Assembly (NCBI GenBank): GCA_023245115.1
Contig: JAHFKX010000041.1
Location: 1 to 7,630, forward strand
Direction of reading: 5' to 3'
DNA length: 7,630 bases
Source: Candidatus Woesearchaeota archaeon
GTDB lineage: Archaea; Nanobdellota; Nanobdellia; UBA10117
Shown here: positions 1-7,630 of the stretch, piece after piece
Layout: each line of letters opens with the position of its first letter
How positions within the stretch are numbered: the first letter of the stretch is position 1
Translations under genes and position numbers: made by a program
Notes under the pieces: generated by a model
The model's input: only the letters and a program-made list of their open reading frames with translations
Told to the model about the DNA's origin: nothing
The model's database searches: none

Positions 1-698
1 ATTTGCCCTACAGATTCAAGGGCCTCTTTGTGTTGCTGATGTTTGTGCAGCTCGGGTAATAAATCGGCCACTGCGATGTAAATGAAACTTCCGGCTGCGA
101 ACGGAATTAGAAAATGCGTAAAATTGCTAATATGCTGTGAAGCAAAAAATGCGATTATTGCACCGGCGAAAGCAGTAAGCGCGGTTAAGAAGTTATATAA
201 AAGTGCTTTTGATTTTGCGAACCCGCTATAAACTAAAACGCCAAAATCGCCGAATTCTTGTGGGATTTCGTGCGCGACAACTGCTATTGTTGTTACGAGA
301 CCCAGCGGTGTTGAAACCAAAAAACTTGCTGCTATTATCATGCCGTCAATAAAATTATGTACGCCATCGCCAAGCAAATTCAGATAACCAACTGCATGAA
401 TATGCACATTTTTGCTTTTTCCATGGGTATGGTGATGATGCCAATGGAAGTATGATTCTATGACAAAAAAAACTATGATGCCGAGCAGCGTTATTGTATA
501 AATATTATCCGATGGCGCTTTTGCAGCCTCAGGAAGCAAGTCAAGAAATGCTGCGCCAAGCATGCCGCCAGCAGCGAAACTTACCAAATAGCTCAACAAA
601 TTCTCAACTTTTTTTCCGAAATACAGTGTTAAGACGCCAACAAATGAAATCAAGCTGACTATAAATACGGATAATAATATGTATGCTAACGTAGCCAT
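1..698 (-). CDS. ZIP (ZupT-like) family divalent metal transporter, C-terminus beyond window edge
   Basis: Absent from the ORF track because it runs off the edge. My translation from ATG (698-696) stays open to position 1: MATLAYILLSVFIVSLISFVGVL...LLPEAAK...HWHHHHTHGKSKNVHIH...GLVTTIAVVAHEIPQEFGDFGVLVYSG...FAAGSFIYIAVADLLPELH. It has several hydrophobic helices, a His-rich loop and the HEIPQExGDF motif typical of ZIP transporters. Confidence 0.85.
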   Translation of the reverse strand, partial: MATLAYILLSVFIVSLISFVGVLTLYFGKKVENLLSYLVSFAAGGMLGAAFLDLLPEAAKAPSDNIYTITLLGIIVFFVIESYFHWHHHHTHGKSKNVHIHAVGYLNLLGDGVHNFIDGMIIAASFLVSTPLGLVTTIAVVAHEIPQEFGDFGVLVYSGFAKSKALLYNFLTALTAFAGAIIAFFASQHISNFTHFLIPFAAGSFIYIAVADLLPELHKHQQHKEALESVGQ

Positions 699-719
699 AA
701 TATTACGACACTAATTAGA

Positions 720-727
720 TTTAAAAA
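720..727. promoter_or_regulatory. Single TATA-like box (TTTAAAAA / TTTTTAAA) centred in the 50-nt divergent intergenic region
   Basis: The box centre (723.5) lies 25.5 nt from the ZIP ATG (698, minus) and 25.5 nt from the in-frame ATG at 749 (plus). This matches the spacing seen at other genes in the window. Confidence 0.45.
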
Positions 728-748
728 GATTTGTTGCTATGTTCTATC

Positions 749-1375
749 ATGATAAATAATATTAAACGGAGTTATTTTTTGAAAATATTTAGGGCGGCGG
801 ATAAAAAGTACGGCCGGCTTGAGAAACGATTGGCTGCTGATGGATGGCCTGCCGCGTGGCAAACTCTTATTGCTACGATAATGTCAGCGCAATCCAGGGA
901 TGAAACTACAATTCCAATTGCAGAAAATTTGTTTACAAAATATCCCGATATAGAAAAATTGGCTGTGGCAAACTACAAAGATGTTTTAGAAATTTTTAAG
1001 AGCCTGAATTACAATAAAACAAAAGCAAAGCATGTAATTGGAGCAGCAAAATATATTTTAGAAAATTTTGGCGGAGTTGTGCCGGAAAAAATTGAAAAGC
1101 TTACCGAAATTCCCGGTGTTGGCAGAAAGACCGCAAATATTGTTCGGGTTGAAGTGCATGGCAGGCATGCCATACCAGTCGATACTCACGTTCATAGGAT
1201 TTCAAATGTTTTAGGGTTTGTTAATACAAAAACGCCAGAGCAAACTGAGCAGGAACTAATGAAGCTAGTTCCAAAAAAGTTGTGGGGTAAGGTCAACCGC
1301 ATTTTCGTATTGTGGGGTAAGGATGTGGCTGGAAAAGATAAAAAGAAGTTGCTTAGGCAGATTGGCCTTGCTTAG
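749..1375 (+). CDS. nth: Endonuclease III-like HhH-GPD DNA glycosylase/AP lyase lacking the C-terminal 4Fe-4S cysteine motif
   Basis: Colinear with E. coli Nth: SAQSRDE, a helix-hairpin-helix EIPGVGRKTANIV with the catalytic Lys, and VDTHVHRI with the catalytic Asp. The ORF track starts at TTG 731. I prefer the in-frame ATG at 749 because of the TATA spacing. The C-terminus (NRIFVLWGKDVAGKDKKKLLRQIGLA) contains no Cys. Confidence 0.85.
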   Translation: MINNIKRSYFLKIFRAADKKYGRLEKRLAADGWPAAWQTLIATIMSAQSRDETTIPIAENLFTKYPDIEKLAVANYKDVLEIFKSLNYNKTKAKHVIGAAKYILENFGGVVPEKIEKLTEIPGVGRKTANIVRVEVHGRHAIPVDTHVHRISNVLGFVNTKTPEQTEQELMKLVPKKLWGKVNRIFVLWGKDVAGKDKKKLLRQIGLA

Positions 1376-1411
1376 TATACCTTGTGCTACGAGTTATAAC
1401 ATTCAGAAAGA

Positions 1412-1424
1412 TTTTTAATTTAAT
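1412..1424 (+). promoter_or_regulatory. TATA-like box upstream of the rubredoxin-domain gene
   Basis: TTTTTAATTTAAT is centred about 23 nt upstream of ATG 1441. Confidence 0.35.
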
Positions 1425-1440
1425 CTATTCGGTTTAATGT

Positions 1441-1740
1441 ATGGTTAAGAGGAAAGTTATGCGGGTAAAGAAAGAGCCTATTATCATTGGGGCGCCAGAT
1501 ATCTACAACTATCAGTGCGCTAGGTGTGGGTTTACATACGATCCGAGGGTTGGCCTGCCAGATAAGAGTGTAAAAGCCGGCACACCATTTGATGAGTTAA
1601 AACAGGGCTGGAAATGCCCCGGTTGCAGCGGCCCAAAAGAAAAATTCAGAAAAATTGCTGAGCCGCTCGAGGAAGCAATTAATATTCTGGGAAAATATTA
1701 TGAGGGCGCACCTAAGAGGCTTTTTGAGCATGAGGATTGA
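1441..1740 (+). CDS. Rubredoxin-domain protein with basic N-terminal and about 30-aa C-terminal extensions
   Basis: YQCARCGFTYDP...AGTPFDELKQGWKCPGCSGPKEKF matches the rubredoxin pattern CxxCG[FY]xYD...GTxFxxLPxxWxCPxCxxxKxxF, with two CxxC knuckles. An alternative start is ATG 1459, preceded by AGAGGAAA. Confidence 0.75.
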   Translation: MVKRKVMRVKKEPIIIGAPDIYNYQCARCGFTYDPRVGLPDKSVKAGTPFDELKQGWKCPGCSGPKEKFRKIAEPLEEAINILGKYYEGAPKRLFEHED

Positions 1741-1999
1741 GAAAAAAGTCTGGCCGCAGTACTTTGAGAAAATTTTGTCAGGTGAGAAGACATTTGAACT
1801 CAGGCTTGCGGATTTTGAGTGTAGGCCCGGCGATATACTAGTTCTGAAAGAGTGGGACCCTGGGATGAAGGCATTTACCGGCCGCGAGATAGAAAAAGAG
1901 GCCACGTTTGTCTTTAAGACAAAAGATAGTAAATTTTGGACAAAAGAAGAAATTGAAAAGCATGGGTATCAGGTAATATCTTTTAGGAATATTAAGTAA
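1730..1999 (+). CDS. ASCH / DUF3850-like (PUA-fold) small protein
   Basis: MRIEKKVWPQYFEKILSGEKTFELRLADFECRPGDILVLKEW resembles the N-terminal signature of DUF3850/ASCH proteins as I recall it. I chose the internal ATG at 1730 (residue 26 of the track ORF). It overlaps the rubredoxin stop by 11 nt (ATGAGGATTGA), which suggests translational coupling. Confidence 0.6.
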   Translation: MRIEKKVWPQYFEKILSGEKTFELRLADFECRPGDILVLKEWDPGMKAFTGREIEKEATFVFKTKDSKFWTKEEIEKHGYQVISFRNIK

Positions 2000-2017
2000 C
2001 ATACAGCATACAAAACA

Positions 2018-2028
2018 TTTTTAATAAA
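2018..2028 (+). promoter_or_regulatory. TATA-like box upstream of ogg
   Basis: TTTTTAATAAA is centred about 24 nt upstream of ATG 2047. Confidence 0.4.
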
Positions 2029-2046
2029 CCCATAGTAACTTTTACT

Positions 2047-2688
2047 ATGTTAGATGGGCTTCAGCTGATTTATGCATCAAAACGTGATGATATCAAAAAA
2101 AGGTTGCAGGATTTTCATCAGTTATGGCTTGAGTCAGATGATAGAAAGATTTTTTCTGAGCTTGCGTTCTGCCTTTGCACGCCGCAGTCCAAGGCCACGG
2201 CGGCAGATATCGCGATTCGCAGGGCAACAGAAGCAGGCCATTTGTACGGCGGTAAGGCTGAAGAGATTGCAGGCCATCTTACCCGTTCAGGTGTCAGGTT
2301 TGGGAACAACAAGGCCCGTTACATTGTCGAAGCAAGAGATTATTTTACGCAGGGCGGAATGCTGAAAATCAAGAGTAAACTCAACTTTGACGATTTGGTT
2401 GGCATGCGGAACTGGCTCGCCGACAATGTCATCGGCATTGGCATGAAAGAGGCTTCGCATTTTTTGAGAAACATCAGTTTCGGAAAAGACTTGGCAATCC
2501 TTGACAGGCACATCCTGAAAAATCTGAAAAAATATGGCGTGATTGCCGAAATTCCTAAAGTTTTAAGCAAGCAAACTTATCTCGACATAGAAGAAAAAGT
2601 CCGCAGGTTTTCCAAGCAAGTTAGAATACCAATGGCAGAACTGGATTTATTGTTTTGGTCAGAAGAAGCGGGGCAGATTTTCAAGTAA
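2047..2688 (+). CDS. ogg: 8-oxoguanine DNA glycosylase/AP lyase, archaeal Ogg2 type
   Basis: Strong colinearity with my recollection of M. jannaschii Ogg: ELAFCLCTPQSKA, GIGMKEASHFLRNISFGKDLAILDRHILKNL (HhH plus catalytic Lys/Asp region), IPKVLSKQTYLDIE, ELDLLFW and a C-terminal G.IFK. Confidence 0.9.
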   Translation: MLDGLQLIYASKRDDIKKRLQDFHQLWLESDDRKIFSELAFCLCTPQSKATAADIAIRRATEAGHLYGGKAEEIAGHLTRSGVRFGNNKARYIVEARDYFTQGGMLKIKSKLNFDDLVGMRNWLADNVIGIGMKEASHFLRNISFGKDLAILDRHILKNLKKYGVIAEIPKVLSKQTYLDIEEKVRRFSKQVRIPMAELDLLFWSEEAGQIFK

Positions 2689-3087
2689 TTATCTCTGCTG
2701 CATTTCGTGATACTCTTTTCCTCTTTCCGAAACGCGGCTGGCATATAATAGGGCCAACTGCGCATAAGTCTGGTTCTCTCCTGTTGTTAGTCTTTCTTTT
2801 GGCGGGACGAATTGTATGCCGTTATAAATAGCTAATTTTTCTTCGTTTTCGTTTGTTCGCAATGCTTCAAAACATAACTCTAAGCCACTCTTATCCATTA
2901 TTTTGCCAACGCCACTGCCGATCGTTTTAACTATTGTTGGTTTTCCTGCGCAGTATTCGTACATAGAAGTTACAAGAAATCCACATTTAATCCCGCCCAT
3001 GTCGCGTGTCGCAAGCTCCAGAATTGCAGACAGCGCATCGGCCAGAACGGGCGGAAATTGAGCCGTTGGTAACTGTGATTTTTCCAT
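2689..3087 (-). CDS. Hypothetical protein (132 aa)
   Basis: I trimmed the track ORF (2689-3198) to the internal ATG at 3087 (MEKSQLPTAQFPP...). The longer form overlaps the SpoU gene by 62 nt, and a TATA-like box (3111-3118) sits about 27 nt upstream of 3087. I recognise no family. Its stop abuts the ogg stop (TAATTA). Confidence 0.5.
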   Translation of the reverse strand: MEKSQLPTAQFPPVLADALSAILELATRDMGGIKCGFLVTSMYEYCAGKPTIVKTIGSGVGKIMDKSGLELCFEALRTNENEEKLAIYNGIQFVPPKERLTTGENQTYAQLALLYASRVSERGKEYHEMQQR

Positions 3088-3136
3088 ATCTTTTTGAGAA
3101 TGGCAACCCTTATTAAACTTTCGCTGAGGTGGATTT

Positions 3137-3700
3137 TTAAATAAGTTTTCTCTGCCTAGTTGCTTCGTATAAAATAATTCCGCAGGCCACAGATACATTC
3201 ATGCAGCGGACGAAACCCTGCATCGGAATTCTTACGTTAAAGTCTGCGCCCTCAAATGCTTCTTTACTTACGCCCCTGTGTTCGTGGCCCATAACTATTG
3301 CAGTTGGTTTTGTGAAATCTGCGCCCATAATATTTATTGATTTTGGTCCGTCATAAGTTGTGCAAATTTTATATTTTTTTTGGCGTAGGATTTCGTAGCA
3401 GTCTGTTATAGTATCCATCTGTTTTATTTCTACCCATTTTTCTGCGCCAGTGGAGCTAATAGAAACCCGTTGTTTTAGGTGCGGTATTGTTTGGCCAATG
3501 TAAAAAATTCTACCAACGCCAAATGAATCACATGTTCGTACTATTGCGCCAATGTTGTTTGGATTGAACAAACTTTCCAGTACAACAACTAAATCCTGTC
3601 TATTTCTTAATATGTCTGCCACTTTTGCCTGCCTTTTGTTTTGCGGCACATCTCTAGGAGGCATAGGCAAGTCTGACAGTTTGTGTGGTTCGGTTTCCAT
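3137..3700 (-). CDS. SpoU/TrmH-family RNA 2'-O-ribose methyltransferase (SPOUT)
   Basis: The three SpoU motifs are present: NPNNIGAIVRTCDSFGV, IVMGHEHRGVS and IPMQGFVRCMNVSVACGIILYE. A TATA-like box (3721-3728, TTTTAAAT on the minus strand) lies about 25 nt upstream of the ATG at 3700. Confidence 0.85.
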   Translation of the reverse strand: METEPHKLSDLPMPPRDVPQNKRQAKVADILRNRQDLVVVLESLFNPNNIGAIVRTCDSFGVGRIFYIGQTIPHLKQRVSISSTGAEKWVEIKQMDTITDCYEILRQKKYKICTTYDGPKSINIMGADFTKPTAIVMGHEHRGVSKEAFEGADFNVRIPMQGFVRCMNVSVACGIILYEATRQRKLI

Positions 3701-3774
3701 ATCAAATTCAATATGGAATGATTTAAAAGCTTTTCAAGTGGGCCCTCCAGGATTCGAACCTGGGACCTCCACCT

Positions 3775-3876
3775 TTCTCTTACCAAAACCGTTTGTATTT
3801 TGTGGCATCTTTAGATGCCACTGTTTCTTTGGCGGTTTCGTAGAGCACCTTTCTTTTCAAAAGAAAGGGGCTGTAC
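3775..3876 (-). other. tRNA intron 3 (102 nt, canonical position 37/38)
   Basis: Flanked by the 5-bp anticodon stem UCACC/GGUGG. The bulges are CA|G (3878-3876) and AA|A (3776-3774). The central helix is C-G, U-A, U.G plus an A.A mismatch. The intron-side helix is UAC/GUA. Splicing restores the loop CUUACAA. Confidence 0.65.
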
Positions 3877-3892
3877 TGTAAGGGTGACGTCA

Positions 3893-3935
3893 TTTCGTGC
3901 AAACACGAAACTGGCCGAAGCCTGCTTCGAGTCTG
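3893..3935 (-). other. tRNA intron 2 (about 43 nt, at D-loop 20/21 or 21/22); boundaries tentative
   Basis: This segment must be removed to join the micro-exon CGGUA (3940-3936, which supplies G18G19) to UGAC-G (3892-3888, the D-stem 3' strand plus G26). The BHB is only relaxed: an intron helix CAGAC/GUUUG of 5 bp, but a central helix with 2/4 pairs. An alternative boundary pair (3889-3930) would use AGAC (3934-3931) as the D-stem instead. Confidence 0.35.
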
Positions 3936-3940
3936 TACCG

Positions 3941-4039
3941 TTGTCTGCACTGTGTCATTTTGCGTGATCAAAGATCACGCCGCCTTTCTTCTTTAGGGAC
4001 ACGGTCTTTTCTTCTTTCGCGAAAGAAGAAAAGGGTGCG
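3941..4039 (-). other. tRNA intron 1 (99 nt, between positions 15/16 in the D-loop)
   Basis: Textbook bulge-helix-bulge motif. Exon GUCU (4045-4042) pairs 4/4 with intron AGAC (3946-3943). The 3-nt bulges are AG|C (4041-4039) and AA|C (3942-3940). The intron helix GCAC (4038-4035) / GUGC (3950-3947) pairs 4/4. Confidence 0.65.
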
Positions 4040-4064
4040 CTAGACCAAGGGCCCACGTATAAAA

Positions 4065-4616
4065 TTATAGATTTGGTTTTAAAAGTCTATTGTAGTCTAG
4101 TAACTTTTCAAAAATTTCTGCTTGTTCAATTGCATCATCTAATGCATTGTGCGTATGCTTTCTGCCGGATAAAAATCTTTTGTCAAAATTCTTTTTTGTT
4201 GTTTCGCCCCATATTTTTCCAAATTGGCCCATGTAGTATGCTTTTATGTCCAGCCCGCTGATACCAAATGGGTTAATTCCTAAAAATCTGCGGAAGTAAT
4301 AATTTACAAACTGCCAGTCAAATGTCGCGTTGAATGCGACGAAAACCGGCCTGCCATCTTTTGCTGTGTTTCTAATCCAAACATCAAAGTCACGCATGCC
4401 AGCTAGTGGCTCTGCGCCTGTTTTTTTCAGCAGTTCAAAATCCAGCTTGCAAACTTCTAGTGCCGTTTTTTCGTAGCTGTCACTTATTGGCTGAAATTCT
4501 TTATAAAAAGTTTCTGGCGTATTGCCAACCACGCAGGCCCCAACAGAAAGCATGCTGAATTCGCTAGGTATTGGTCCAGACGACTCAACATCAACTGAAA
4601 AATAAATTTCTTCCAT
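4065..4616 (-). CDS. DEDDh-type 3'-5' exonuclease (DnaQ/RNase T-like)
   Basis: Exo I is FSVDVESSG (DxE), Exo II is VAFNATFDWQFV and Exo III is HNALDDAIEQA (Hx4D). Its ATG overlaps the upstream gene's stop by 1 nt (TAATG). Confidence 0.8.
   Translation of the reverse strand: MEEIYFSVDVESSGPIPSEFSMLSVGACVVGNTPETFYKEFQPISDSYEKTALEVCKLDFELLKKTGAEPLAGMRDFDVWIRNTAKDGRPVFVAFNATFDWQFVNYYFRRFLGINPFGISGLDIKAYYMGQFGKIWGETTKKNFDKRFLSGRKHTHNALDDAIEQAEIFEKLLDYNRLLKPNL
4077..4084 (-). promoter_or_regulatory. TATA-like box for the tRNA gene, embedded in the 3' end of the exonuclease CDS
   Basis: TTTTAAAA is centred about 26 nt upstream of tRNA position 1 (4054). Confidence 0.4.
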
Positions 4617-4954
4617 TAGCCGAATATACTGCCCATGCCTTCCATGGCCGCATTTTCAAGTTCATCAATTTTTTTCTGAATTTCTGCGGCGTCCTTGCCT
4701 TTCATTAGTTTTGCGCCAGCCTCAGTGAGCTTTTTTTCGTTTGCCTTGAAAAACGAGTCTTCGGCTTTAATATGAATATATGTGGCCGGCTTTGTCAATC
4801 CCAATGTCGTGGCATCCCGCATGATGTAGCCCTGTGCTTTGAACGGATTTTGCACCCACTGGCCTGTCGTTGGGTCTTTTGCATCCTGCGCGTCAAGAAT
4901 GTTCTTCACTTTTGCTATGTCCTTTGACTCAGCCTCATAAATACGTATTCCCAT
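4616..4954 (-). CDS. Small uncharacterized protein (112 aa) with a ribosomal-stalk-like C-terminal tail
   Basis: A TATA-like box (4975-4982) lies about 25 nt upstream of the ATG at 4954, and the gene is translationally coupled to the exonuclease gene. The C-terminus ...IDELENAAMEGMGSIFG resembles the archaeal P1/L12 stalk tail (...EEALAGLSALFG). The N-terminal part does not look like the P1 dimerisation domain. Confidence 0.6.
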   Translation of the reverse strand: MGIRIYEAESKDIAKVKNILDAQDAKDPTTGQWVQNPFKAQGYIMRDATTLGLTKPATYIHIKAEDSFFKANEKKLTEAGAKLMKGKDAAEIQKKIDELENAAMEGMGSIFG

Positions 4955-4997
4955 AAATTATGTGCCTTTTTTGTGTTTTTAAGCCTTCGCGCAGCTA

Positions 4998-5810
4998 TTA
5001 TGTGGTGTTGTTTTCAGGACTTGTGCTGCGTGTTTGCTTGATGTTTATGCCAACTTTTTTCAGCTTATAGTCCGCACCAGTTAATGTGATTTGCAGATTG
5101 CCGATGACTTCTGAGGAACCTTTTTGGATTTCATAAATGTTATTTCCTATATCAAATGTCGCAGCCTTATTTTCTTCATCTATTGTGAGCAGCTGAACGC
5201 GTTTTGGGAATGCCGTAATAGTATCATATGGTTTTAAGATAAAGTTTTCTGGAGTATTTGAACAGCCGTACGAGGTGCAGGCAACATCACAGTGTGTGAC
5301 AACGCGTTCTGTGCATCCGTCATTGTTTGTGTCTTTACATAGTACATGATCGTTGCTCTCGCATACTGGATAGTCTACGACGTTGCACTCGTTTTCGCAT
5401 TTTGCAAAATCGGAGAATGATGTAATGAACCATGTTTTTCCTTTTTGGAATTCAATTGTGATTAATTCTGTTTTATTGTCTTTGCTTATGTTGTAGATTG
5501 CGTATGCATTATTAGAATCTTTCTTGAAAACATCTACTAAATCTATTTTTGCATCCGCAAACTTTTCAGAAAGCCGTTTCGTGAAGCTGGAATTTGAGCC
5601 TGACTTGACTGTATCTGGCGAGAGCTCTGCAAAAACTTTGTCAAAGTGTTTCGCATCTATAGAAGTTTCTACATCTTTTGCCAGAACGAATGCGCCGGTT
5701 GGCGTGCCAGTGCCATGCGAAGCAAAATAAGCCAGTGCAATCAGCATTATAACAAAGGCTGTAAAGATGGATATTTTCCTAGGACTGAGTCTAGTAATCA
5801 CTTCCCCCAT
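4998..5810 (-). CDS. Membrane-anchored or secreted Cys-rich hypothetical protein (270 aa)
   Basis: It has an N-terminal hydrophobic helix (ISIFTAFVIMLIALAYFA). Eight Cys fall within about 50 aa (CENECNVVDYPVCESNDHVLCKDTNNDGCTERVVTHCDVACTSYGC). A TATA-like box (5832-5839) lies about 25 nt upstream of the ATG at 5810. Confidence 0.65.
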   Translation of the reverse strand: MGEVITRLSPRKISIFTAFVIMLIALAYFASHGTGTPTGAFVLAKDVETSIDAKHFDKVFAELSPDTVKSGSNSSFTKRLSEKFADAKIDLVDVFKKDSNNAYAIYNISKDNKTELITIEFQKGKTWFITSFSDFAKCENECNVVDYPVCESNDHVLCKDTNNDGCTERVVTHCDVACTSYGCSNTPENFILKPYDTITAFPKRVQLLTIDEENKAATFDIGNNIYEIQKGSSEVIGNLQITLTGADYKLKKVGINIKQTRSTSPENNTT

Positions 5811-5900
5811 GAATTCAGCCGTATTTGGGAATTTTTAAAGATTATTGAAATCCAGCGCACAGATGTAAATGACACTTTATCTTAGCGTAATATGGAAAGG

Positions 5901-5908
5901 TTTATAAA
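5901..5908 (+). promoter_or_regulatory. TATA-like box for the 5932-7344 three-gene cassette
   Basis: TTTATAAA is centred about 27 nt upstream of ATG 5932. Confidence 0.4.
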
Positions 5909-5931
5909 GCCCGCTCTAGTAAAAGCTGCGT

Positions 5932-6327
5932 ATGGTACATTCGGATGAGATAAATGGTTATGTTCTAGAAACACCAACCGAGCTGCGTTTAATACGACAG
6001 TCACGGACGGGGTGGGTAATTGCAAAGCGCGTATCACTTGAAAGACCTGTTGCATCGCCACAGGATATTTTGCATCGTTTGTCTGTCGGCAAGGCGTTAA
6101 TCGACATGGTTCCCGCGGAAGAAATTGGTGAGCTAAAAGAAAAAATAGATATTCCAATTACAAAGGAAACAAAAGCTTGGGCGTACCGTGGGCCAAACCC
6201 AAACGCACGCGTAGCCGAAGATGTTTTGACTGGCCTGCTTCGTGCGCGTTCAGTCGTTTGGTTTAATGGCGAGTCAGGCCAGTATGAATACAGGGCGCTG
6301 GGCCTGGCAATCAAATGGGGCGAGTAA
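5932..6327 (+). CDS. Hypothetical protein (131 aa), first gene of the cassette
   Basis: The ORF has a correctly spaced TATA box and is followed by tightly packed same-strand genes. The antisense ORFs are Ser/Arg-rich and lack such signals. I recognise no family. Confidence 0.55.
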   Translation: MVHSDEINGYVLETPTELRLIRQSRTGWVIAKRVSLERPVASPQDILHRLSVGKALIDMVPAEEIGELKEKIDIPITKETKAWAYRGPNPNARVAEDVLTGLLRARSVVWFNGESGQYEYRALGLAIKWGE

Positions 6328-6332
6328 ACATA

Positions 6333-6842
6333 ATGGAAAAAGAACTAGGTTTATTGAATGACATTATTTCGCGCGCCGGAAGAGAGAATGACAAGGCAAG
6401 AACAGCGAGTTACAACATCCTAAAAACTAATTTGAAATTTGCCGGCTTTGAATTACTTAGCGAATTTGCTGTTATTTACAGCACTAATCCACCTATGCGG
6501 TGGCCTAAGGTTTTGCGCCAAGGCCACTATTGTGCTATTCAAAAAGATGGTAATTATTATGTTGTCCGTGTAGATGAACTTTGGGACGGAGGATATGGCA
6601 TCGCAACGCCCCGCGAATTTAAGTCTTTCGGGGACGTTGTTGTGGTTGGCAAAATTCCAAGTGCAGATGGCCTGGCCGATAAGCATTTAGTTGATGACGA
6701 TGCCCTTTCGTTGGAATCCAAGCTAGAGCGAATCGACAATGCAGAAGAGTTACAGCGCGCTATGTTGCCAGCATTCAGGGCTTCAGAGCAGGGAATAAAA
6801 GCAGTTGAGCAAAGCAGGCTTGCCGCACTAGGTATGGCATAA
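6333..6842 (+). CDS. Hypothetical protein (169 aa), paralog of the next gene
   Basis: I prefer ATG 6333, which lies 5 nt after the upstream stop, over ATG 6315, which overlaps the upstream gene by 13 nt. It shares motifs with the 6844-7344 product: ILKTNLKFAGFE vs LLETNLGVAGFD, NPPMRW vs KPPYDYW, and YYVVRVDELW vs IYVIYVPTAW. Confidence 0.6.
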   Translation: MEKELGLLNDIISRAGRENDKARTASYNILKTNLKFAGFELLSEFAVIYSTNPPMRWPKVLRQGHYCAIQKDGNYYVVRVDELWDGGYGIATPREFKSFGDVVVVGKIPSADGLADKHLVDDDALSLESKLERIDNAEELQRAMLPAFRASEQGIKAVEQSRLAALGMA

Positions 6843-6843
6843 A

Positions 6844-7344
6844 ATGTTTGACGAACGAATAAAAAAATCAACTGAGGAGCATTTGGCAGAAAGAAAAATT
6901 GAAGCTGGCATATTAGACAGAAATTTACAGAAATCTGGATTTAAGTTACTGGAAACTAATCTTGGGGTTGCTGGTTTTGACAGTCGCCTTATAGGTAAAG
7001 AACTTCGCGTATTTCATAAACCGCCTTACGACTATTGGTATGATGTAGTTCAGTGGCAGGGCGATGGCGATAAAAGTATTTATGTCATTTATGTTCCAAC
7101 AGCTTGGAAAAAAGTAAATGGCGCATATTATGGACGACCATGGCAGCGGTCAGAATTTGAGTCTTTGGCCGGATTTATGGCTCCGGAGATATTAGGTGCC
7201 ACATCGACCTTCGGATATGCTGGCAGGATATCTGCCCTAAATGATGCAGTAATTCGGGCTGGCCAGGAAACAGCGGCTTTCCGCAATGACACTCTAACAA
7301 AAAGGTTTCGCGATATGAGGACCAAGGCGCTTGCAGCCCGATAG
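6844..7344 (+). CDS. Hypothetical protein (166 aa), paralog of the previous gene
   Basis: It starts 1 nt after the upstream stop (TAAAATG). The paralogy motifs are listed for the previous feature. Confidence 0.6.
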   Translation: MFDERIKKSTEEHLAERKIEAGILDRNLQKSGFKLLETNLGVAGFDSRLIGKELRVFHKPPYDYWYDVVQWQGDGDKSIYVIYVPTAWKKVNGAYYGRPWQRSEFESLAGFMAPEILGATSTFGYAGRISALNDAVIRAGQETAAFRNDTLTKRFRDMRTKALAAR

Positions 7345-7417
7345 ATTTAAAAACCCAAGGCATCCACAAATAACCGTTATAAGTTCTACAAATAAACAAA
7401 GTGTCTAGGTGAAATAA

Positions 7418-7630
7418 ATGTCTGAACAGGTAAAGCAGAAAAAAGGAACAACAACTGTTGGATTAGTTTGCAAGGATGGCGTAGTGCTGGCCGCGGACAA
7501 GCGGGCCTCGATGGGCTGGCTGATTGCGAATAAAGATGTAGAAAAAATATTCCCGGTATCTGGCTTCATCGCCCTGACACTGGCAGGCTCGGTTTCTGAT
7601 GCCCTGAATATATCAAAGCTCCTGAAAGCG
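7418..7630 (+). CDS. psmB: Proteasome subunit beta, N-terminal 71 codons (continues beyond window)
   Basis: Absent from the ORF track because it is open at the edge. Translation: MSEQVKQKKG|TTTVGLVCKDGVVLAADKRASMGWLIANKDVEKIFPVSGFIALTLAGSVSDA. This is a short propeptide followed by the catalytic Thr and the GxxxKDGVVLAAD pattern of archaeal beta subunits. GGTGA lies 7 nt upstream of the ATG (SD-like), so unlike its neighbours this gene seems to have a leader. Confidence 0.9.
   Translation, partial: MSEQVKQKKGTTTVGLVCKDGVVLAADKRASMGWLIANKDVEKIFPVSGFIALTLAGSVSDALNISKLLKA

Follow-up and report, generated by a model that had tools for sequence, protein, structure and literature searches.

Archaeal tRNA genes are known with up to three introns, the known maximum, and genes with that many have been described mainly in Thermoproteales (PMC4033280, PMC8450103). 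For example, tRNA-Pro(UGG) of Pyrobaculum islandicum is interrupted at 25/26, 37/38, and 56/57, as reported by Sugahara in 2007/2008 and summarised later (PMC4090602, PMC4033280). Multiple-intron tRNAs have also been listed for ARMAN-1/2, N. equitans, and Methanopyrus kandleri (PMC4033280). ARMAN-1/2, with their multiple-intron tRNAs, have an endonuclease of the epsilon2 type (PMC3239211, PMC4033280), and the tRNA-Glu of M. kandleri has a D-loop intron at 20b/21 with a relaxed form (HBh') of the bulge-helix-bulge (BHB) splicing motif (PMC5829648). Among the archaea of the DPANN superphylum, Pace- and Woesearchaeota have alpha4 endonucleases bearing an L3 loop, and in DPANN endonucleases this insert goes together with a greater number of disrupted tRNA genes (PMC5829648). 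Some tRNAs often appear to be missing from DPANN genomes, and Kaneta et al. (2018, PMC5829648) ascribed incomplete tRNA sets to "unidentified disrupted tRNA genes". In this report we describe a tRNA-Val(UAC) gene that is, in all likelihood, interrupted by three introns. It lies in a stretch of 7,630 nt (contig JAHFKX010000041.1, positions 1 to 7,630, from assembly GCA_023245115.1 of Candidatus Woesearchaeota archaeon; metagenome contig in ENA ERZ27297570), and this whole stretch is referred to here as the window.

The gene belongs to the known archaeal multiple-intron tRNAs. As in Thermoproteales, it has three introns that are probably of the endonuclease type, one at the canonical and two at non-canonical positions, with predicted BHB or relaxed HBh' motifs, and the introns are so close to each other that one would have to leave before the motif of the next can form (PMC8450103). 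The introns of this one gene also resemble each other, as is the case with intron transposition in Thermoproteales (PMC4033280). In contrast to the hyperthermophilic crenarchaeotes, the present host is a DPANN archaeon from groundwater that is mesophilic and has a G+C content of about 42%. Its non-canonical introns are at 15/16 and 20-21/22, one exon is only 4-5 nt long, and two introns of about 100 nt each carry a structured module of about 75 nt. The pre-tRNA-Glu(UUC) of M. kandleri resembles the present gene in that it has a relaxed D-loop intron near the position of intron 2 together with an intron at 37/38 (PMC5829648). It differs in that it has two introns and no micro-exon and was tested biochemically, whereas the gene described here is known from sequence. 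The disrupted tRNA genes published from other DPANN archaea are from the same superphylum and likewise have non-canonical and multiple introns, but the present set of orthologues, in which the choice of interrupted sites among four varies from locus to locus, gives a finer picture of intron turnover. The original prediction held that two introns of about 100 nt together with a third would be unusual for an AT-rich genome of this type; the case is less so than was supposed, as disrupted and multiple-intron tRNAs had already been reported from DPANN archaea (PMC5829648, PMC4033280). A eukaryotic nuclear tRNA gene with three BHB-type introns is interrupted in the same three arms as the present gene family, but the endonuclease complex is another one and its introns are evolutionarily unrelated to those described here. 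Neither this gene family nor the Mamarchaeota-like lineage that carries it was encountered in the papers searched.

The gene and its orthologues

The gene is on the minus strand of the window and runs from 4054 to 3739, and in these 316 nt there are four colinear exons of 15, 5, 16, and 36 nt. Exon 1 (4054-4040; GGGCCCUUGGUCUAG) comprises tRNA positions 1-15, that is, the 5' strand of the acceptor stem (GGGCCCU), U8 and G9, the 5' strand of the D stem (GUCU), and A14 and G15. It is followed by intron 1 (99 nt, 4039-3941) at position 15/16 and then by the micro-exon CGGUA (3940-3936), which supplies C16, G18, G19, U20, and A21. Intron 2 (43 nt, 3935-3893), which can fold into a long irregular hairpin, separates the micro-exon from exon 3 (3892-3877; UGACGUCACCCUUACA; tRNA positions 22-37), in which are found the 3' strand of the D stem (UGAC), G26, the anticodon stem strand UCACC, and the loop CUUACA with the anticodon UAC. 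Intron 3 (102 nt, 3876-3775) is at the canonical position 37/38, and exon 4 (36 nt, 3774-3739, with the 3' end AGGGCCCA; tRNA positions 38-73) has A38, GGUGG, the variable loop AGGUC, the T arm CCAGG-UUCGAAU-CCUGG, the 3' strand of the acceptor stem (AGGGCCC), and the discriminator A73. CCA is encoded neither by this gene nor by the orthologous genes. A TATA-like box (TTTTAAAA; 4077..4084, minus strand) lies at -30 to -23 from tRNA nucleotide 1 and is a putative archaeal promoter.

The three introns add up to 244 of the 316 nt (77%), and the coordinates and lengths of the introns and of the four exon blocks hold on the minus strand as they were originally predicted. Of the predicted 5-nt micro-exon, the sequence CGGUA with G18 and G19 is present, but it may in fact be the 4-nt CGGU (3937-3940). 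This is so because both the micro-exon and intron 2 end in A, and the second intron can thus be placed at 20/21 or at 21/22 with an identical spliced product. The exons follow one another on the same strand over 316 nt, with a single TATA-like box upstream, and this order rules out a split or permuted tRNA gene. As to self-splicing introns of group I or II, there was no Rfam match, and the introns are 43-102 nt long compared to a ribozyme core of at least about 200 nt.

When the four exons were joined, ARAGORN identified the resulting 72-mer as tRNA-Val(tac) with a normal cloverleaf. When the unspliced window was searched, ARAGORN found no tRNA gene and Rfam gave nothing at E<=1. With introns allowed, ARAGORN reported a tRNA-Leu(aag) with a single intron of 246 nt, i(27,246). 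This model, and the freedom that remains when exons are picked by hand from 265 nt, are what could be said for the locus being either a gene with one large intron or a chance assembly of tRNA-like pieces. The 265 nt that separate exon 1 from exon 4 were shuffled 20,000 times, with an exon-3-like element defined as the 3' strand of the D stem, five nucleotides complementary to GGUGG, U33, and R37. Such an element was present in 3.5% of the shuffles and a strict BHB for intron 1 followed by GG in 3.4%, whereas the element and the strict BHB in the correct order were found in only 11 of the 20,000 (0.055%). A chance origin of the arrangement of exons and BHB is excluded, and the comparison of orthologues described below makes the question of chance irrelevant. 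The single-intron tRNA-Leu(aag) was rejected because it relies on intron sequence that is not conserved, whereas the blocks CGGUA and UGACGUCNCCCUUACA are conserved, and the orthologues contradict it. We regard the probability of either version of this explanation as negligible.

The comparison comprised five loci, namely the window and the loci L007, L009, L010, and L006. A search pattern made of the micro-exon and exon 3 retrieved L007 and L009, and homologues of the neighbouring proteins led to L006 and L010. L007 is the GTDB genome Nanobdellati archaeon NC_groundwater_1190_Ag_S-0.1um_44_133 (JACQKZ01), a groundwater metagenome-assembled genome (MAG) from the Modesto "Ag" site that was binned as Mamarchaeota (He et al. 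2021), L009 is from a metagenome of the Joint Genome Institute (JGI), and L010 is from the NCBI assembly GCA_053535855.1. In L006 the tRNA adjoins a SpoU methylase that is 61% identical to that of the window, and the first 5 nt of the tRNA are missing. The conserved gene order is a 270-aa protein, a 112-aa protein, (exonuclease), the tRNA, and Ogg, and three neighbouring proteins of L007 share 83%, 68%, and 76% identity with their counterparts in the window. As judged by these sequences, the five loci are orthologues in a DPANN lineage, and the host is a DPANN archaeon closely related to the groundwater MAG binned as Mamarchaeota.

Several other loci that came up in the searches were set aside. 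L008, which matched the search pattern, is an ordinary tRNA-Val of Methanomicrobiaceae that was retrieved by chance. The SpoU homologues L004 and L005 (44-47% identity) are archaeal but without synteny, and no relatives came up when genome contigs were scanned with the SpoU protein from next to the tRNA. The exonuclease homologues L011, L012, and L019-L021 are without synteny and have no tRNA nearby; the exonuclease gene is widely exchanged and is therefore a poor marker of the locus. The 112-aa neighbour has only one relative in the databases.

Position 15/16 is interrupted in all five loci, by 99 nt in the window, 25 nt in L007, 100 nt in L010, 99 nt in L009, and 24 nt in L006. At 20-21/22 there is an intron of 43 nt in the window, L009, and L006 and of 44 nt in L007, and none in L010, which reads GACAA/UGGUAUGACGUCGCC (here and below, a slash within a sequence marks the junction or cut), so that its micro-exon runs straight into exon 3 as UGGUAUGACG. 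At 37/38 the intron is 102 nt long in the window, 30 nt in L007, and 100 nt in L010, and it is missing in L009 and L006, both of which read CCCUUACAAGGCGG. A fourth position, 59/60, is interrupted by 13 nt in L009 and 12 nt in L006 and is free of introns in the window, L007, and L010. The intron at 59/60 has a strict BHB in which the central helix is formed by UUCA with UGAA or UGGA and the T stem is the outer helix. What is important here is that introns 2 and 3 are each missing in some orthologue exactly at the junction that was predicted from the window, and L010 fixes the boundaries of intron 2 within 1 nt. The micro-exon is invariant in the five loci except for C or U at position 16, and conservation of the blocks CGGUA and UGACGUCNCCCUUACA extends to all four of the other loci.

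The full-length spliced products, those of the window, L007, L009, and L010, are 72 nt each and all are tRNA-Val(tac) by ARAGORN. In the alignment of the spliced sequences the cloverleaf was 100% paired across the five loci, and six pairs were changed on both sides while none was broken. These compensatory pairs are 6-67 and 7-66 in the acceptor stem, 29-41 in the anticodon stem, which is A-U in the window compared to G-C in all the orthologues, and three pairs in the T stem. In a control in which the partners were slid by 1-3 columns, pairing was 27-50%. Positions 15 and 48, as read off the alignment, co-vary as G15/C48 versus U15/A48. A TTTT(T)AA(A) box was found at -30 to -23 in all four loci that have upstream sequence (window, L007, L009, and L010). 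Because of the compensatory pairs, the covariation of 15 and 48, and the conserved TATA-like box, the locus is best read as a gene under selection and not as a pseudogene. A decaying tRNA pseudogene that has taken up insertions and is no longer spliced would also go unseen by ARAGORN and Rfam, would contain 77% of non-tRNA sequence, and would not need a clean splicing motif in intron 2. However, the exons of such a pseudogene would not be expected to be kept in five loci with their stems fully paired through double changes and with 15 and 48 co-varying, nor would its TATA-like box stay at a fixed distance and its insertions end exactly at BHB bulges, and we consider decay to be very improbable. 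The gene model in the original prediction, a tRNA-Val(UAC) with three introns and a micro-exon containing G18G19, is thus backed by the ARAGORN call, by the absence of introns in orthologues, and by the compensatory pairs.

Splicing motifs and proposed order of intron removal

The motifs were scored on each strand for an outer helix (h), a 4-bp central helix (H), a bulge of three nucleotides in which the cut follows the second, and an intron helix (h'). For intron 1 the strict scan recovered exactly the motif that had been described for it, a 3-4-3 BHB in which an intronic AGAC mimics the D-stem partner of GUCU and which is followed by a 4-bp helix. In this motif H is formed by the 5' strand of the D stem, GUCU, with AGAC at 3943-3946, and it has four of four pairs in all five loci, the partner being GGAC in L010 and L006. 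The bulges are AG/C and AA/C in the window, and across the loci they are A-N15/N and AA/C, or AA/U in L010. The intron helix of the window is GCAC (4035-4038) with GUGC (3947-3950), 4 bp, and over the five loci this helix has 4-5 bp and co-varies (GCAC with GUGC, ACUA with UAGU, GCAG with CUGC, GCGA with UUGC, and AUUAU with AUAGU). Intron 1 is without an outer exon helix h. For intron 3 the BHB-like motif predicted at 37/38 was found as a relaxed hBHBh', in which the 5-bp anticodon stem serves as h, CUUA is opposite AGAG in H (three of four pairs), and the bulges are CA/G and AA/A. Its h' has 3-7 bp across the window, L010, and L007 (UAC with GUA in the window), and in L007 the partner in H is UUAG, also with three of four pairs. 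Another BHB-like pairing, by which the micro-exon itself would be cut out (5' site after nt 111 and 3' site after nt 159), was seen only in the window and L009 and was rejected.

The earlier account of the motifs covered introns 1 and 3, both of which were found, and it leaves intron 2, which is without a textbook BHB: the strict scan found none in the four loci that carry this intron. The way in which intron 2 is recognised is therefore put forward here as a model. A weak motif can form if the junction is at 20/21 and intron 1 has been removed, and its layout is the same in four of four loci. It consists of the D stem (GUC with GAC), the bulges GU/A and AA/A, and a 5-bp intron helix of C1-C5 with G32-G36, for which the candidate in the window is CAGAC (3931-3935) with GUUUG (3900-3904). 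All four loci have this 5-bp h', in which three pairs show changes of both partners, and exactly 7 nt lie between it and the D stem on either strand, corresponding to the 4+3 geometry of a BHB. Intron 2 also forms a long hairpin that is strongly conserved, co-varies, and has C(UUCG)G as its cap.

We propose that the locus is a genuine, spliced tRNA-Val(UAC) gene with three endonuclease-type introns and put the probability of this at about 0.9. Transcription would begin just downstream of the conserved TATA-like box and give a precursor of about 316 nt. The archaeal splicing endonuclease would cut this precursor in the 3-nt BHB bulges at six sites, an RNA ligase would join the four exons, and CCA would be added after splicing because none is encoded. 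Intron 1 would have to be out and its exons ligated before intron 2 could be recognised. The reasons for this order are that the BHB of intron 1 uses GUCU, while the motif of intron 2 needs the real D stem, and that the central strand of the intron-2 motif spans the junction of exon 1 and the micro-exon. Dependent introns, of which one is removed before the motif of the next can form, have been described for archaeal tRNAs in the paper on tRNAscan-SE 2.0 (PMC8450103). Intron 3 would be removed independently of introns 1 and 2. A splicing endonuclease of relaxed specificity is implied, as the original prediction expected, and the motifs fit this: intron 1 lacks an outer helix, H of intron 3 has three of four pairs, and H of intron 2 has only two or three of four. 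Such an enzyme would be in keeping with the endonucleases with an L3 loop and the many disrupted tRNA genes known from DPANN archaea (PMC5829648).

Several observations weigh against this interpretation, and most of them concern intron 2. Its H, in which A14-N15-C16-G18 is opposite CACG, CACA, CGCG, or CGGG, has two or three standard pairs out of four, and a conserved half-motif for its 5' site at 21/22 was not found in either the spliced or the unspliced context. Moreover, a mutually exclusive conformer of intron 2, hairpin B (UUUCGUG with CACGAAA), also co-varies; it sets the 3' site AA/U between two helices. Intron 1 is present in five of five loci (24-100 nt), so that there is no intron-less allele that would confirm its junctions, and these rest on the BHB and on the requirement for a normal D loop. 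The covariation counts are from five loci that represent about four lineages only, and no gene for the endonuclease or the ligase (EndA, RtcB) is present within the 7.6-kb window.

The observations on intron 2 are those on which a different fate for this intron could be argued, with introns 1 and 3 spliced normally: it might be kept in the mature tRNA as an expansion of the D arm, or it might be removed without a BHB. Besides the lack of a strict BHB in the four carrier loci and the incomplete H, its own conserved and co-varying hairpin capped by C(UUCG)G exceeds what an intron needs. Retention is countered by L010, in which the D arm is normal and uninterrupted, showing that the tRNA works without the insert, and by the position of the insert itself, as 43 nt between 20/21 and 22 would disrupt the core formed by the D loop and the T loop. 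As for removal by a route other than a BHB, the 7+7-nt spacing of the D stem and the co-varying helix fits a BHB in four of four loci, and a relaxed D-loop intron at 20b/21 is cleaved in M. kandleri (PMC5829648). Both of these fates are improbable in our judgement, although less so than decay into a pseudogene, and excision of all three introns by the endonuclease is the reading that we prefer.

Related modules in introns 1 and 3

The window, L010, and L009 share an architecture of about 75 nt in their introns 1 and 3. This module begins as a pyrimidine/purine hairpin, to which a further purine tract (CCNAAGAA..) and a GC-rich hairpin are added. When intron 1 was aligned with intron 3, the scores were 3-5.7 standard deviations above those of mononucleotide shuffles, and the two introns look paralogous. 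In L007, which is a close relative, introns 1 and 3 are only 25 and 30 nt long and are without the module. The first 53 nt of intron 3 (3824..3876, minus strand), that is, the hairpin formed by CCUUUCUUUU and AAAAGAAAGG and the tract that follows it, are identical at 52 of 53 positions (98%) to L010 2198-2250. Elsewhere, the DNA of the flanking genes of the window is 66-81% identical to that of L010, exon 4 is 69% identical, and the next hairpin of intron 3 (3791-3823) is 42% identical with its stem kept. The pyrimidine strand in intron 3 can alternatively form 10 bp with AAGAGAA/AGG across the 3' splice site.

The intron at 37/38 in the tRNA-Trp of Haloferax volcanii is about 105 nt long and carries a box C/D guide RNA. 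Intron 3 resembles it in being long (about 100 nt), structured, located at 37/38, and conserved beyond what splicing needs. In contrast to the Haloferax intron, introns 1-3 showed neither a C/C' box (RUGAUGA) nor a D/D' box (CUGA) when they were read through, and Rfam gave no match at E<=1. Additional copies of the module were found neither among the loci compared nor in viral contigs. The modules could be more than passive spacer and represent an RNA element that is mobile or has a function, such as a stable (circular) small RNA derived from the intron or a cassette that spreads from intron to intron and from lineage to lineage. Pointing in this direction are that they are paralogous, that they are missing from these introns in L007, that the copy in intron 3 contains 53 nt that are 98% identical across lineages with genes about 75% identical, and that the alternative pairing of the pyrimidine strand over the 3' splice site could make splicing conditional. 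We regard this as a tentative suggestion that is more likely to be wrong than right.

Neighbouring genes and implications for DPANN tRNA sets

Protein "genes" of 109-137 aa have been called across the tRNA locus, at 3552-3881 (+) in the window and at about 2025-2438 (+) in L013-L016. None of them had a match in Pfam and they are artefacts of the unrecognised tRNA gene. The open reading frames over the locus had been called spurious from the beginning and this was borne out, the one at 3552-3881 (+) being that which translates the T arm as GFEPGTS.

The gene that begins 39 nt downstream of the tRNA, at 3137-3700 (-), encodes a methyltransferase of the SpoU/TrmH family; its homologues are named tRNA (guanosine-2'-O)-methyltransferase by JGI, and close relatives are very rare in the databases. 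Directly upstream of the tRNA, at 4065-4616 (-), is the gene for an Rv2179c-like 3'-5' exonuclease. Homologues of the exonuclease with 60-65% identity are named from Thaumarchaeota, Woesearchaeota, Bathyarchaeota, Chloroflexi, and Armatimonadetes, and this distribution suggests frequent inter-domain transfer. Further away, at 731-2688, the window contains a small DNA-repair/redox neighbourhood with an Nth-like HhH-GPD glycosylase, a rubredoxin, a DUF3850 protein, and an archaeal-type Ogg glycosylase, the last three of which are conserved in L010.

In L009, a tRNA match below the Rfam threshold was found at 5047-5139 (+), with 25.4 bits compared to a gathering score of 29. Its anticodon loop is UUGAAAA (anticodon GAA, probably Phe), its D arm is shortened, its acceptor stem has two mismatches, and its variable region contains about 28 nt of inserted sequence, which ends in GAAAG. 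This may be a second disrupted tRNA gene of the lineage.

What is new in the present gene family is that it is from a Mamarchaeota-like lineage and that it has an exon of 4-5 nt and two introns of about 100 nt. It is also new that introns come and go rapidly, at four positions, from one close relative to the next, that the modules of about 75 nt are paralogous, and that a segment of 53 nt is 98% conserved. The locus is a comparatively validated tRNA-Val gene that was missed by both ARAGORN and Rfam, and it was missed because 77% of it is intron. In a study of 208 complete Nanobdellota genomes, tRNA-Val was not detected in 15 of 54 Pacearchaeales, and no explanation was given for this (2026 preprint, 10.64898/2026.05.13.725050). 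The present locus is from another DPANN lineage and hence does not directly explain the absence in Pacearchaeales, but DPANN genomes can seem to lack tRNAs in this manner, and the locus shows one route by which this can happen and what kind of gene to search for in Pacearchaeales. Finally, the series of five loci, in which introns at 15/16, 20-21/22, 37/38, and 59/60 and the modules within them come and go, is useful for studying how archaeal tRNA introns spread and to what degree the specificity of the DPANN splicing endonuclease is relaxed.

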